A DNA stretch of 63,596 nucleotides, counting the filler, from Candidatus Aminicenantales bacterium (lineage in GTDB: Bacteria > Acidobacteriota > Aminicenantia > Aminicenantales > UBA4085): NCBI GenBank assembly GCA_049515535.1. It is 4 parts of 4 records of this genome, joined end to end, with 100 filler letters (N's around TTAATTAATTAA, not from the genome) between each part and the next. Parts side by side here need not be neighbours in the genome. Positions count along the whole stretch, not along the records: positions 27,030 to 52,061 come from JBEKTZ010000019.1; positions 52,162 to 62,009 come from JBEKTZ010000024.1; 2 more parts are not named here. One strand, given 5' to 3'. The stretch's first letter is position 1. Each line of letters starts with the position of its first letter. Shown piece by piece: positions 27,001 through 54,000 of this stretch. The position numbers are program-made.

Positions 27001-30000
27001 NNNNNNNNNNNNNNNNNNNNNNNNNNNNNCCTTAAAAGCGTCGGCGCTCGGGGCGAGGGCGTCGGAAGCATCCTCAAAAGCCAAATCGACGAGCTGAGCC
27101 GGAATATCTCTCGAGGCATCGGATTGTCGGAGAGTAAAATCGCGCTGGCGGCTCCAGCCGGAATCATCGCTCTCACGACGAATTCCATTGAGGCCTATCA
27201 ATATTTTCTGCGGGGCCGCGACGATTACGAAAAATTTTTCTTTCCGGACGCTCAAAAATTCCTGAAGAAGGCCGTCGAACTCGACCCGACATTTGCCGTG
27301 GCTTACCTCTATCTGGCCAGAGCCGACGGAGAATTACGGGATTATAAGGGCCGGGACGAGGCTTATGAGAGAGCTAAAAAATATTCTATGAAAGTCACGG
27401 AGAAAGAGCGCCTTTATATAGAAGCTGCATATGCTAGCGTTGTCGAAAAGAGCCCCGAGAAAAGATTCCGTATTCTCTCCGAATTAGTCAAAAAATATCC
27501 TGAAGAAAAATATGCGCACTACGATCTGGCCTTGTATTATGAAGGTCGGAGACAATATCGGGAGGCGATCGAAGAGAACAACAAGGCCATCGCCTTGGAC
27601 CCGAATTTCGGATCTGCCCTCAATCAAGCCGCCTATGACTATACAAGCTTGGGCGATATTGAGAAAGCTATCGAATACTTCGGGCGCTATGCATCCGTCA
27701 ATCCCGGACTCCCCAATCCCATCGACTCCATCGCCGAGCTTTATTTACGCATGGGAAAGCTGGATGAGGCCATTGCGAAATATAAGGAAGCGTTGGCTAT
27801 CAAGCCAGACTTCTATAGCTCCTGCGTAGGACTGGCCTATAGTTATGCTTTGAAAGAAAATTATCCGGAAACGATCGCTTGGGTCGATCAATTGATCGAG
27901 CGAAGTCCGGATTCGGCAAAATGGGCAGGATCCTGGCTCAAAGCCTACTTTGATTATTTCTTCGGCCGATGGGATCGATCTCTGGCGGAATATCTTGCCT
28001 TGAAAAAACAGTCCGAGAAAGAGGGCGCTGCGTATACCGTCGCAACAGTGGCTTGGATCACCGGATATCTTTATTCGGATCTCCGGCAGTTCGATATGGC
28101 CCGGGAAAGCGACCAAAAATGGAATGATTATAATTCCGCGCAGAATCCGTCTTATAAGGCTTCAAATTCCGCGGATAAAAGTTACGCGCTTGGATGGGTC
28201 GATTTGAAACAAGGATGGATAGAGGGCGCAAAAGCAAGGCTGGCCGAGATCAAGCCTCTCCTGCCTAACCTCGATTCCTCCAGGAAAAAATCGGGGGCAT
28301 TTTATTATGATTTGCTGAACGCGGAGGTTCTGTTGGCGGAAGGCTCCATCGATGGAGCGATCGCCCAGGCCGAGAAAATCGTTCTCCCGGATCCTCCGAT
28401 GATGGATATCGCAAGCATCGTCACCACGAACCAGCCTTTTTTGAAAGACGTCTTGGCCCGGGCTTATTGGAAAAAGGGGGAATTGGACAAGGCCATCGCA
28501 GAATACAGGCGTCTGACGACCATCGATCCTACAAACCAGCTCCGCTTCCTCATTCATCCGCTGTATCATTATCGGCTCGGCCGGGTCTATGAAGAAAAAG
28601 GCGATAAGGCCGAAGCGCGGGAAGAGTATCAGAAATTTCTTGAATTTTGGAAGGACGCCGACCCCGGCCTGCCCGAAGTCGAAGATGCCCAAAAACGCCT
28701 GGCCGGGCTGAAAACGCCGTAAATCCTCGTCTCGGCGATTCTATCATCGCCAACTCCATTCTCGCTCTCCCTGACGATCACCATCCCGGGGCAAGTCGTC
28801 TCGGGGCTGAAGAGAGCGGCGCTGGGCGGCTGATAATCGATTTCTGGATATAATTTCTGGACCTTTGGGGCAAGTCGTCTCGGGAAAGAGCGGCGCTGGC
28901 GGCTGAATCTCATCTTCAAGACGTGGTTTCAGGATGTCCCGGGCAAGGAGGAGAGGGGGGAAGACAGAGAGCGACGCTGGCGGCTGAATATTTAATTTCT
29001 GGACGTGGCTTCAGGACATCCTGCGGCAAGGGGGGAAAAGCGGATTTTCGATGACTATAGAGCGCATTTTTTGCTAAGCCTTGACAACCGATAAATTAAA
29101 GGAGATAAAATATTTTAGGATTAATCATCGGAGGAAAAAAATGAACGAATACCCGGAGATGGTAACGTGTTTGCCACAAGCAGACATCGCATTCAAAGGT
29201 CTTCAAGGATGGATTTTCCAAGGCAAAGATCAACAGATCGTCTTTATGCAAATCGAGCCAATTGGAAAGGTGACGGAACACGCCCATAGAGCCCAATTCG
29301 GAATGGTCCTCGACGGAGAGATGAGCCTAGCCATAGGAGGCGTAACGAGAATATATCGGAAGGGGGATACGTATTTCATCCCAAAGGGCGTGCCTCATTC
29401 GGCAGTATTTCATTCGAAAGTATTTGTCGTTGATTTCTTTGACGAGCCAGCGAGATATAAGGAAAAATCCTGATAAAGTTGGCGATTTTCCAGGAAGTGA
29501 TCAGAGAAGGTGGAGGCAAAGGAGCTGATAGAAGCGGCGGCATCGTATGGATTTCTATATATGGTTTAGGAGCAATCCAGGTAAGTCGTCGAGGGGAAAA
29601 GAAAGAGAGCGCTGGCGGCTGAATATCGATTTCTGGACGTAATTTCAGGATATCCCGGGCAAGTCGTCGAGGGGTAAGAGAGCGGCGTCGGCGGCTTAAT
29701 ATCGATTAGAAGACGTGATTTCAGAACATCCTGGGCAAGTCGGAGGAAAGAAAGAGGGAGGATTGAAAATCCGATTGCTTTTCATGACGGATAATGTCGA
29801 GAAGAGCAGAAAGTCTATCGTCTTTTGTGGGATTTTACGGTCGCCCGTGAAACACATCTGTCCGGACGGCATCCTTGGCGGCCATCTACTGTTGTTGACT
29901 TCAATCCGCAGCCGGGAATATACTTTTCTTGTAACGAGCGGAACCGATTCCGAGCTTAGCGGGAGGGAAAGTCGCGTAACGGGGAAAAACGATCTTTTTA

Positions 30001-51000: not shown

Positions 51001-54000
51001 CGATGCTCTAGCCTCGGCGTATTCAAAAAAAGGCGATCTCGGCGCGGCCCGCGATGATTACGAGAAGATCCTCCCGCTGACGTGGGGACGATTGATTTAT
51101 AGCGATATCTTTGCCAGGAGCTTCTATCAGCTGGGGAAGATCTGGGAGCAACAGGGAGATAAAGCCAAAGCCTGCGAGAATTATCAGAAATTTCTGGACC
51201 TCTGGAAGGATGCCGACCCCGGCCGGCCCGAAGTCGCGGACGCCAGGAAGAGGATGGAGGAGCTGAAAACGCTGTAAATCCCCTGAACTTTTTTCCTGAA
51301 AAGAAGGGAATCAGAAAAAATCATGGTATGGTCTCAGCGATTCTATAATCGCCATCTCCATCGTCTCGCTCTTCTTGACGATCAACATCCCTGGGCAAGT
51401 CGTCGAGGGTGAAAAAAAGGCGCCGGCGGCTGATGATCGATTTCTGGATATAGTTTCGGGAGACCCAGGGCAAGGAGGAGAGGGAGAAGGGGAAAGGGTA
51501 AAGGGAAAGCGGGAGGAGGGAGTTGAACCGGATGGCGATGTTTGAAGCCTTGCCAAAAGGGCTTAGGTAAAATATTATAAGACTCGGAACCTGTAACCTA
51601 AGAAGTCAGCGCGCGAGCACGAAACCGCCTGAGGATAAATAACCAACTCATAACGGAGGAATATTTTATGAAGATTATTGTTTTTAACGGGAGTCCGCGA
51701 AAAGCTTGGAATACCGCCACGCTCTTAAATAAGGCACTGGAAGGCGCAGCTTCGCAAGGAGCGGAAACGGAACTCATCCAACTTTATGATCTCAATTATA
51801 AAGGTTGTAAGAGTTGCTTTGATTGCAAAATGAAGAATGGCAAAAGTTATGGCAAGTGCGCCGAAAACGATGACTTAACACCCATTCTGGGCAGAATTGA
51901 AGAAGTGGGCGGCATAATCCTAGGTTCACCCATCTACCTAGTGTATTGTCTCATAAATAAGTTGCATATATAGTCGATCTGCTGTATCATGGGCATAATG
52001 GAGGTGCCCATGAAAACAGGCCGGCCCAAAAAAATGAACATCGCTCTGACGAAGGAGGAGCNNNNNNNNNNNNNNNNNNNNNNNNNNNNNNNNNNNNNNN
52101 NNNNNTTAATTAATTAANNNNNNNNNNNNNNNNNNNNNNNNNNNNNNNNNNNNNNNNNNNNCGACAAGGACCTGATCAGCTACAACGGCATGTTCATCCG
52201 CGGTCCCAGAGCCGGCATCTCCGGTTCTTAAGACCTAGCTCAAATCTGATCCCCAGCCAAGGGCGATCCGAGACGGCTCGGATCGCCCTTTTTCTTTTAT
52301 TCTCACGATCCTCCGGGTCGATCGAGAATCCCGGAAACGTTTTCCCCTGATCTCTCTTCCGGAAAATCTTCACGGTGGAGCTTTATTCTTTATGTAACAA
52401 CGGATTCCATCGTTGCATCGGGGGGACCAAAATGAGCCACGGAACCCGCGTTCCCTTATCTTAAGCGATCCTGCTGTGATATAATCATTCTATAAAGCGG
52501 CCGCTTTCATCGCCGATGATAAGGAAGGAGCAGCTGATGAATAAAGATCGCCAGGGCTTCACCCTTCTTGAAATGGTCATCGTCGTCACGATCATCGCCC
52601 TTCTTTTATGGACCGTAGCGCCGCGCTATTTTGAAAGCGTCCAAGAAGCAAAACAGACGATGACGATGAAGGATATCAGTGTTCTGGCCGATGCGTGTTA
52701 CAAATACATCCTGGACAACGATGAAGCTCCTCCGCAGGCGGGCCCTCTCACCCCGAACAGCCCCTTCGTCAAAGCGATCGCCGCGAAATATCTCACGGAA
52801 TGCCCCCTGACGGATAAATGGAAAAATCCCCTGGTGATCTATACGGGCCTGGCGGCTGCCGGTCAGCTTGGGATTTCTTCCGATAAAGCCAGGAAAGAGG
52901 ATTTTTTGATCATTTCTTATGGGCACGACAATAAACCGGACGAAGGATTCCAGTACAACCCGGAAAACCCGGACGCCGGGAAGTATAAAGTCGCCAATAA
53001 AGACGATTTCAATAATGATATCATCAATTTCAACCGCCTGTGGATTCGCGCTCCGTTGAAATGATCATCAACGGGGAACGATTTTCAAGCAGACATAAAT
53101 TTCGTAAACCATGAGAGCGAAATAAACCCAGAGTACGAGATAGATCGCGGACCGGATTTTAATGACTTTAAAAATTCTGAAATTCTTGTGAATCAGTAAA
53201 AATAACAGGCATGTCAGGCTGATTGCCATTTTCACGATGGGCGCGAGATAGGGCCCCTTCTCCATCAGAAAGCGCATCAAGGCATTGAACTCGGATCCGC
53301 CGAACTTGATGATCCGATTGGTCAGGAAGATGTCGAGAAAGCAACAGAATATGATCACGGCACAGAGGAGAAGATCCTGTTTTTCAAATTTGTCGACGTA
53401 GTAGTCGAAGGCTTCTTCGGCGCGTCTGGCCTTTTTTCTTCGGCCGAAAAACGTGAAACGGCTGAGGGGTTTTGTCGGCGCCCGCCGACGATCCCGGCTT
53501 GATCGCAGATCTTCCATTAGGACTCGGGGGATAGACGCTGATTGACATTTCTCGAGGGCATTGAAATCTTTTTGAGTCTGTTCGATTCGCCGTCCATGAC
53601 CGAAATATATATGCCCTCTAAGGGGAGGTGTCAAGACTTTAAAGGCCTCTTCAGCATGAGCATCCCCTCACCTCAAAGATGACAATAATTGTCACATGGT
53701 GACATAATATGTTAACATTTATTGTCATGGTTTTATCTAAAAAATTTAGTATAATGTTTAATATCAATTAGTTATATGTCTTGTTTAACTTGGCATGATG
53801 ATTGCATATATATAGAGTGTAATGCAATTTCAAAAGCTCCTTGTTGGAAGATAAAGCGACAACAAGGGGAGGAGGTTTTAAAATGCTTAAAAGACAAAAG
53901 GGTTTCACGTTGATCGAACTACTCATCGTGGTCGCGATCATCGGAATCCTGGCCGCCCTGCTCATCCCCAACGCCGCCAACGCCCTGCAGAAAGCCAAGG

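Follow-up and report, generated by a model that had tools for sequence, protein, structure and literature searches.

Gene-cassette arrays outside integrons are, to our knowledge, rare and rest mostly on palindromic sites. In integrons, the R″ and R′ boxes read RYYYAAC ... GTTRRRY. Systems that come close to the one reported here include integron cassette arrays and CALINs (PMC4889954) and the pdif (dif) modules of Acinetobacter, for which the arms have been tabulated (PMC13141974). In the PeSL cassettes of T4-type phages, conserved repeats of about 100 bp in hyperplastic regions flank non-essential genes, and recombination between them has been proposed as the way in which genes are excised, inserted and shuffled, with chimeric repeats left behind (PMC2839356). 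In homology-facilitated illegitimate recombination, one end is anchored by homology and the other is joined at a few bases (PMC6382021). Among the seekRNA-guided insertion sequences, ISKpn4 of the IS1111-attC group targets attC (PMC11187229).

Organization of the repeat array

The analysed DNA (the window, 63,596 nucleotides) comes from an Aminicenantes genome and includes contig JBEKTZ010000019.1 (C19) at positions 27030-52061; C3, C6, C8 and similar names denote other contigs of the genome. A 76-bp repeat was found 55 times genome-wide by nhmmer (20 bits), and Infernal also counted 55, with 0 nhmmer matches in the reversed genome. The copies fall on C19 (22, +; the window total), C6 (18, +), C8 (13, -) and C3 (2, +), which reproduces the first-pass annotation. 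None of the 55 lies inside an ORF longer than 165 aa, as had also been claimed for called genes. Together these co-oriented copies separate about 90 kb of accessory genes. Among the 51 inter-repeat intervals, 26 hold no ORF of at least 110 aa (22 of these spaced 61-88 bp), 13 hold one and 12 hold several; the ORFs between repeats are co-oriented in 30 cases and anti-oriented in 33. These automatic counts are close to those given before (24, 16 and 11 intervals; 34 and 32 genes).

Features of C19, in window positions (X2 is a near-identical strain):
27030..28722 (+): Ser/Thr kinase-TPR cargo gene, C-terminal TPR part; N-terminus probably at the left end of C8
28732..28795 (+): B1 half-site, a decayed IS21 istB 3′ end, terminating in the shared GGGCAAG arm
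28813..29033 (+): 3-repeat run; 28826-28897 swapped for another 73-nt unit in X2
29141..29473 (+): cupin cargo gene; second copy in C8 with different neighbours
29535..29747 (+): 3-repeat run
29867..29992 (+): IS91-like oriIS-side end, a passenger; family genome-wide in both orientations
30299..31129 (+): cargo ORF of 276 aa without Pfam family
31277..31395 (+): B2 half-site, 3′ piece (antisense) from a small winged-helix-like mobile-element gene, then the shared arm
31407..31633 (+): 3-repeat run
31892..34831 (+): M16 peptidase cargo gene
35089..35274 (+): hybrid arm and 2 repeats, with 179 additional bases at the 35097/35098 junction in X2
35670..35796 (+): B1 half-site and one truncated repeat
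35973..37394: cargo, methyltransferase (+) and ATC-hydrolase-like gene (-)
37474..37544 (+): lone repeat
37613..41027: multi-gene cargo, 485-aa unknown (+), kinase fragment (-), DUF5648 protein (-), small ORF (-)
41059..41164 (+): half-site arm and one repeat
41451..41951 (-): dCTP-deaminase-like cargo; 97% identical copy in locus L054 with other neighbours
42129..42268 (+): 2-repeat run
42300..42590 (-): thiamine-binding-family cargo gene
42650..42847 (+): 3-repeat run; indel differences in linker 42694-42708 in X2
42899..47592 (+): kinase-TPR gene, then ECF sigma/small ORF/S26 peptidase module
47935..48083 (+): 2-repeat run
48170..51277 (+): kinase-TPR cargo gene
51334..51486 (+): B1 half-site and one repeat
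51668..52061 (+): FMN reductase N-terminal half, cut at about 51935 by an IS end; C-terminal half opens C6

C8, C19 and C6 had been joined into one array by inference. The C19-C6 join is now demonstrated, because the FMN-reductase gene is split between the two contig ends by an IS end common to several contig ends. The C8-C19 join is only plausible, with a kinase N-terminus on C8 and a TPR C-terminus on C19.

When each of 106 loci is read on the strand that carries its first copy, all 349 of 349 copies lie on one strand, a set that includes the 55 copies of this genome and some overlapping short loci; no locus with mixed strands was seen, which extends the 275 of 275 reported previously. Of 150 further Aminicenantales genomes, 17 have the repeat, as against 0 of 150 from the wider phylum. 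Within the family, 12 of 26 other genomes carry 1-7 matches as a lower bound, which replaces the earlier figure of 9 genomes with 1-3 copies. No prior description was found in listings of open-access papers. Four pattern matches in viral contigs were rejected as the repeat by the model, and a location at the replication terminus was discarded, the dif-like site being on C4, away from the array.

Anatomy of the repeat and its half-sites

The two main motifs of the repeat are spaced exactly 30 in 178 of 255 paired matches and 29-31 in 216 of 255 (60 further matches lack a partner), and this fixed spacing points to binding by a protein. Every copy is conserved at positions 13-33, and linked variation is limited to positions 34-55. 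Neighbouring copies resemble each other (0.644, n=90) about as copies from different loci do (0.656, n=1464).

Runs are often preceded by half-sites that share the GGGCAAG arm with the repeat. Of 202 copies that open a run, 115 have the arm within 60 bp upstream; among 2149 background windows the rate is 10.3%. The bases after the arm follow a grammar: TCGTC in 55 of 111 cases when a repeat comes next, GAGGA or TCGGA in 83 of 160 when cargo does. The B1 class translates as an IstB C-terminus; the peptide in locus L031 is 88% identical to an intact IstB that scores 301.5 bits on NF038214. B1 is a decayed 3′ end of IS21 istB. Weaker istB remnants lie on C3, C6 and C8, and the B1 remnants beside repeats decay with indels. 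The arm and linker of the repeat itself resemble the istB tail modestly (71 junctions beat the best of 60 shuffles, which used 25 junctions, with 6 of 6 tails). A coding origin of the whole repeat was rejected, as its reading frames have frequent stops and the resemblance is limited to arm and linker. No intact donor gene of B2 was found in 201 genomes of the order with the query used. The half-sites, their istB origin and the arm-targeting element described below go beyond the first-pass annotation. In four families of this uncultured order, accessory genes are arranged around an unstructured site that apparently arose from the end of a transposon gene.

Comparison with known systems

The array resembles integrons and CALINs in its long series of direct-oriented sites between accessory genes, with no integrase nearby and with IS1111-type parasites (PMC4889954). 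It departs from them, as these are characterized in the same source, in lacking palindromic attC sites and R boxes, in genes running both ways, in operon-size intervals, in about 40% of intervals being empty and in several breakpoint zones. The repeat is not palindromic and does not fold, in agreement with the earlier statement that it is not an attC. Single-strand folding of 37 copies gave mean z values of +0.63 on one strand and +0.74 on the other (in each case a single copy of the 37 fell below -2), and the consensus fold has 3 pairs at -1.15 kcal/mol. The R″/R′ boxes were found in 0 of 349 copies within 40 nt on either side, with the integron-like part of C18 as positive control. IntI pieces occur on C4 and C14 only, and the repeat model matched none of 8 intI loci or C18; likeness to attI was rejected, with no match found.

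Accessory modules bounded by short asymmetric sites recall pdif modules, and their 6-bp spacer is faintly echoed (PMC13141974). The repeat differs from them in never alternating in orientation (PMC13141974), and the Xer inner motif was found in 0 of 262 distinct copies, with the canonical dif-like site on C4. A REP/BIME/REPIN identity was rejected (no hairpin, no genome-wide spread, no inverted doublets), as were a CRISPR array (pairwise repeat identity about 0.65; cas1 in 0 of 5 genomes) and an RNA family (no Rfam match). The complement of the IS91 target lies in the repeat arm (10.1101/2025.01.24.634351). IS91-like pieces had been noted beside some repeats, a hint that we abandon: the resident Y2 elements have other ends and flanks and no such target, and no repeat match was found at six Y2 pieces.

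PeSLs are promoter and terminator stem-loops in phage DNA (PMC2839356), whereas the present repeat is chromosomal and without fold. In 28700-31900, six promoter-like and 0 terminator-like sites were predicted, none inside a repeat. Homology-facilitated illegitimate recombination, as reported in PMC6382021, is a rare laboratory event without an island-building repeat array.

Strain and module comparisons

The near-identical strain X2 keeps the same gene order and differs inside three repeat runs. The earlier remark that X2 showed no reordering therefore holds for genes and fails within the runs, which turn over between strains. In one unit replacement, both ends lie at about model position 13, and the flanks show 0 differences over 179 and 1076 nt. 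In this comparison, which covered assembled contigs, short joints (a side below 30 bases) were set aside as paralogous; strains X3-X5 are represented by short low-depth pieces only.

The cupin cassette with its repeats is indeed present twice, its C8 and C19 copies being 89.4% identical over 752 bp, and repeat-bounded accessory modules recur in other contexts, as previously claimed. Of 21 copy pairs, not independent of each other, that share only one flank, cargo cases have their break at the GGGCAAG arm or linker in 7 and close to positions 30-34 in 4-5; the apparent breakpoints near position 33 are partly an artefact, since positions 13-33 are conserved in all copies. Shared cargo breaks at three different zones of the repeat. 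In many shared modules, one end or both lie off the repeats, among them the ECF sigma/small ORF/S26 peptidase module (94-97% in loci L170 and L174), and some are oriented opposite to the repeats. Breakpoints in three zones and often off the repeat argue against one fixed crossover. Mosaic repeat haplotypes, together with the one-flank-shared pairs, amount to chimeric repeats as in PeSL exchange.

Explanations of the array

These observations preserve part of the earlier proposal of a cassette platform other than an integron: the repeat is not an attC, it bounds recurring accessory modules and its runs turn over. Against a dedicated site-specific platform stand the three breakpoint zones, the many module ends off repeats, the opposite orientations and the absence of an array-linked recombinase. 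We tentatively favour, at somewhat less than an even chance, the reading that the repeat is a lineage-specific homology anchor through which the flexible genomic islands of Aminicenantales exchange modules, PeSL-like rather than integron-like. A short sequence, partly from the IS21 istB 3′ end, would spread through tRNA-linked island clusters, and DNA arriving from related cells would pair at one conserved block of it (at about 5-21, 27-33 or 57-65). At its opposite end this DNA would join a second repeat, giving a clean cassette, or by microhomology in purine-rich tracts, giving truncated sites, half-sites and captured IS or island-end pieces. Each exchange event would add or leave one unit, which may explain the empty runs of unrelated copies. 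Only direct repeats would yield viable gain, loss or replacement, which may explain the co-orientation. The protein acting on the repeat, the pairing mechanism and the uptake route are parts of this reading that we infer. In its favour stand the X2 unit replacement, the breakpoints in three zones, the modules that end off repeats or run opposite to them, the lack of closer likeness between neighbouring copies, the half-site arms ahead of runs, the limits of linked variation, the absence of an array-linked recombinase, and ComEC, which all 5 of 5 genomes encode. Against it, copies taken at random diverge too far for RecA to pair them efficiently: only 4 of 1176 pairs share at least 25 bp (33 of 1176 at least 20 bp), where the minimum for homologous pairing is 25-35 bp (PMC6382021). 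The fixed motif spacing also speaks against it, as do the occurrence of MutS in 5 of 5 genomes and the searches of 27 family genomes, which gave RecT in 0 of 27 and ERF in 1 of 27, other than this one. Exchange by such an anchor would be a chromosomal counterpart of phage PeSL shuffling, a recombination hub without a dedicated enzyme.

The repeat could also be the site of an unlinked tyrosine recombinase dedicated to it, in a true non-integron cassette system, which we consider possible though rather unlikely. The crossover would lie mid an imperfect 12-6-12 dyad (positions 18-47), with spacer mismatch tolerated and the remaining breakpoints produced by later gene conversion. Of 160 placements, the dyad that starts at position 18 and has a spacer of 6 bp scores highest (6.0 of 12 pairs, where the mean is 2.9 and the sd 0.9), linkage drops to zero across positions 28-32, and two pairs fix a break at 31-34; yet the dyad was first spotted by eye and is without compensatory change, and neither end of the X2 replacement falls in its centre. 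The fixed motif spacing and the leading-strand orientation of 9 of 11 loci also fit, although two loci are on the lagging strand. Targeting of the arm by an IS1111-type element parallels ISKpn4 on attC (PMC11187229).

For the enzyme, the array regions of this genome encode 117 proteins, with no recombinase found among them; a choice of 132 proteins from related loci included one IS-type integrase core, and comparison of this genome's tyrosine recombinases with the loci gave a single gene of phage type in L083 and, in L049, a scrap of IntI. There is a broken integrase 18 kb away from where the array starts. In 151 genomes it has no relatives other than two intact copies, both in genome G144, which are 19 and 53 kb distant from the two repeat loci there. 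This candidate is nevertheless absent from 16 of 18 repeat-positive genomes, no repeat was found within 1.5 kb of its matches, and it belongs to tRNA island clusters, in which co-location is expected. A search for viral relatives of the G144 integrase found none. A second orphan recombinase occurs in just 2 of 151 genomes, serine recombinases of this genome on C1 only, and no reverse transcriptase was found in G000. Were the recombinase explanation correct, the locus would represent a non-integron cassette-capture system with an unlinked recombinase, an unstructured 76-bp istB-derived site, and 90-kb arrays in which whole genes and operons run either way, the site being old and common enough for an RNA-guided IS1111 parasite of its own, a composite we likewise consider rather unlikely; it would also imply an unknown recombinase with relaxed spacer needs.

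A small selfish element without its own transposition machinery is an improbable identity for the unit; it would insert at the GGGCAAG arm of earlier units as well as at istB tails and so build up runs, while accessory genes merely gather in a tolerant region. Such insertion would agree with runs starting at half-sites that terminate in the arm and with the different post-arm bases before repeats and cargo. However, the unit has no terminal inverted repeats, hairpin or target duplication, adjacent copies are unrelated, no matching transposase was found, and the repeat is restricted to two genome regions, unlike the IS91 end family with 41 matches over many contigs.

A neutral graveyard, in which the repeat plays no active part and goes back to one ancestral island with decayed pieces of istB that was duplicated and then spread through ordinary horizontal transfer, would suit the abundant broken istA, istB, IS91, integrase and island-end pieces in the arrays and the 1-7 copies of most genomes, but is very unlikely given a consensus and spacing that stay the same in four families while adjacent B1 remnants decay, near-identical strains that differ in repeat runs, and strict co-orientation.

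An IS1111-type element targets the repeat arm

The relative G013 carries an IS1111-type element whose guide matches the GGGCAAG arm. It encodes a DEDD transposase (NF033542, 192.7 bits; cut-off 140), has subterminal inverted repeats and is followed by a downstream non-coding region with words that match its target, as in the IS1111-attC group (PMC11187229). Its target, the arm common to the repeat and the istB tail, sets it apart from that group as described there (PMC11187229). The element is a parasite of the repeat site. Its left guide word agrees with the target over 5-8 nt in all full copies examined (9 of 9) and changes with it. The element offers a natural series of guide/target pairs changing together.

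The repeat-bounded array

The repeat system of this genome behaves like a cassette array. With a profile built from 37 copies, a search at a threshold of 20 bits identified 55 copies of the 76-bp repeat, 22 on C19 (one of the contigs that spacers join in the window, at 27030-52061), 18 on C6, 13 on C8 and two on C3, where they flank a single tricorn-type protease gene; the reversed genome gave no match under the same settings. On each contig the copies all point the same way, and ORFs longer than 165 aa contain none of them. The 51 repeat-bounded intervals comprise 26 without an ORF of at least 110 aa (repeat spacing of 61-88 bp in 22 of them), 13 with one and 12 with several, and the ORFs are oriented with the repeats in 30 cases and against them in 33. 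Accessory genes make up the cargo: kinases with TPRs, peptidases, methyltransferases, efflux and ABC operons, nitroreductases, and ECF modules. C19 breaks off at an IS end after half of an FMN-reductase gene, and C6 opens with the partner IS end followed by the missing half, so the two contigs are one array. A kinase N-terminus at the end of C8 and a TPR C-terminus at the start of C19 would fit a split kinase/TPR gene, which is compatible with a C8-C19 join but no proof of it. The joined stretch spans about 91 kb, with a GC content of 53% versus 57% for the genome.

Four blocks, GGCGGCTGA, GATTT, TTTCAG and GGGCAAG (the last forming the arm), are conserved at 85-98% across 262 distinct copies, and two linked haplotypes occupy repeat positions 32-55, linkage of the variation being limited to positions 34-55. 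The spacing from the first to the last block is exactly 30 in 178/255 paired matches. A purine-rich tract directly follows the arm, with 81% purine where cargo follows. Folding tests revealed no fold in the repeat, an attC frame was found in 0/349 copies, and a Xer motif in none of the 262 distinct copies. Adjacent copies are no more similar than copies from separate loci, and the repeat runs are therefore not fresh tandem duplications. Membership tests place the array outside integrons and pdif modules, as far as the available text of PMC4889954 and PMC13141974 goes, and outside REP, CRISPR and IS91 ends. Our literature search found no published description of the repeat in the text available to it. 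That the array is a new recombination system seems doubtful to us.

Distribution and strand

Repeat matches occur in 12/26 other genomes of the family (at least 1-7 per genome) and in 17/150 other genomes of the order, across four families, and in none of 150 genomes of the wider phylum. A metagenome scan gave at least 134 stretches with the repeat pattern; those confirmed by the profile hold arrays of the same kind, and mixed strands were never seen. All 349 copies in 106 oriented loci lie on a single strand. With oriC placed at dnaA on closed or long contigs, 7/9 repeat loci are on the leading strand, as are both repeat regions of the source genome by GC skew. The read sets that best match the array are, by record, peat metagenomes. 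An 8.4-kb contig with 10 repeats (L269, genome G411) sits within a 0.6-Mb genome bin; it is probably misbinned, transfer into a distant host being the alternative.

Module turnover and breakpoints

The near-identical strain X2, from another study, has its genes in the same order from 28.3 to 48.3 kb, to the extent that its pieces cover this stretch. In X2, window positions 28826-28897 are swapped for another 73-nt unit between identical flanks, both ends of the replacement falling near repeat position 13. Moreover, it has 179 additional bases at 35097/35098 and a different repeat linker at 42694-42708. Substitutions that distinguish this genome from X2 cluster at two places within cargo (window 32854-34267 and 36650-36796), which suggests imported tracts.

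Cupin, DUF2284, nitroreductase and MarR efflux modules were found again at 90-99% with other neighbours, the DUF2284 module in six other loci, and one module with its repeat is common to G144, G113, G149 and L082. Sister locus L065 shares the upstream element of C8 at 83-91%, and the cargo beyond it differs. There are 21 copy pairs, some of them related to one another, that are alike in one flank only. In seven cargo cases the break is at the arm/linker, in 4-5 it is near positions 30-34, and three give no information. Since positions 13-33 are conserved in all copies, a break at 31-34 is firmly placed in no more than two pairs. The ECF-S26, NfeD-band 7, radical SAM and one kinase modules end far from any repeat, and some shared modules are inverted relative to the repeats; both observations count against a clean cassette model.

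Half-sites and captured fragments

A bare arm precedes 115/202 first-of-run copies, against a background of 10%. Two recurrent half-site classes are co-oriented (B1, 24/24; B2, 36/37). B1 derives from the 3' end of IS21 istB and is decayed, although at L031 it still translates as the IstB C-terminus; in intact IS21 elements of the lineage, what follows istB is a normal IS21 end rather than the repeat. In B2 the same arm comes after the end, in antisense, of a gene from a small winged-helix-like family, and a longer piece of that gene adjoins a cut repeat at L130. The repeat arm and linker modestly resemble the istB tail; no known source was found for the middle. In relatives, hairpin module D is found next to tRNA genes and ahead of excisionase-like ORFs, and it is therefore an island end; within arrays it is preceded by DnaA-box-like motifs. 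It has no Rfam match.

Hairpin module D, perfect 8-bp outer stem: L001:4489-4700; L177:16025-16121; source genome (G000) C9:140622-140721

A family of IS91-like oriIS-side ends, each some 130 bp long, is spread through this genome, at window 29867-29992 and about 40 other sites, with no fixed target tetranucleotide. A phage terminase large subunit-like piece, recognized by eye, adjoins a six-repeat run near 450 of L092 (oriented position).

The arm is itself the target of a parasitic element. The closed genome G013 carries three copies of an IS1111-type element, each within CATCAAG|GGCAAG, one in a repeat and two in istB remnants, and L128 holds a fourth left junction of this type, in a repeat. 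The downstream non-coding region of the G013 element contains both target halves, and in 9/9 full copies examined the 3' non-coding guide words vary with the target, sister elements having other targets and other words. The G013 variant targets the arm of the repeat and the tail of istB. The available text of PMC11187229 describes such elements, some aimed at attC and REP. The source genome's own copies have another target, at sites outside the array.

IS1111-type family members: G013 (L222, L225, L229), L128, L221-L231

Search for an enzyme

No recombinase was found among the array proteins, nor, beyond one IS-type integrase core, in 132 cluster-representative ORFs of 829 in related loci. The source genome has no reverse transcriptase, and Cas1 is absent from 5 genomes searched. 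Serine recombinases are on C1 only, and XerC- and XerD-like genes are present. At a distance of 18 kb from the start of the array there is a broken integrase that best matches archaeal XerA models. Relatives of it occur in 1/150 other genomes, G144, as two intact copies near both repeat loci of that genome but inside tRNA island clusters. We regard it as a lead, not as support, for an array recombinase. A second orphan recombinase is found in 2/151 genomes.

Remnant of an integrative element (the broken integrase, small ORFs of unknown or winged-helix-like type): L001:9400-16600; L182:3472-3990
Intact orphan Xer-like recombinase near an rRNA region, one relative (G007): source genome C3:335171-336166

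Mechanism of exchange

We tentatively favour homology anchoring, in which exchange would occur at whichever repeat block pairs and the far end of the incoming module would be joined illegitimately, because it fits the spread of breakpoints over three zones, the modules bounded at one end only, the truncated repeats and the fragments of mobile DNA picked up by the array. In their available text, PMC2839356 proposes recombination of this kind for T4-type phage cassettes (PeSLs), and PMC6382021 describes illegitimate joining of the far end in homology-facilitated illegitimate recombination. The weak point is divergence of the copies, as 25 bp are shared in only 4/1176 pairs; the presence of MutS also counts against homology anchoring, and resident annealing proteins were looked for and not found. 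A dedicated, unlinked tyrosine recombinase acting on the repeat would account for the fixed block spacing, a 12-6-12 dyad and the strand bias, but it leaves the 73-nt replacement in X2 unexplained, and we consider it rather unlikely. That the repeat is a self-targeting selfish unit is improbable, and that the array is a neutral graveyard somewhat more so, each explaining less than homology anchoring or a recombinase.

Other mobile and defence-related elements

True-integron remains lie apart from the repeat array, and the genome has a canonical dif-like site.

Integron remains (C18 attC-like frames, a repeated intI-upstream segment, two IntI C-terminal fragments): window 19900-26929 (C18); C4:3352-3537; C14:26310-26522
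Canonical dif-like site: source genome C4 near 241760

Directly before the first repeat of C8 lies an OLD-family ATPase and UvrD helicase pair (L001:6066-9318), which is Gabija-like; L065 carries a different such pair in the opposite orientation (L065:11145-14257).
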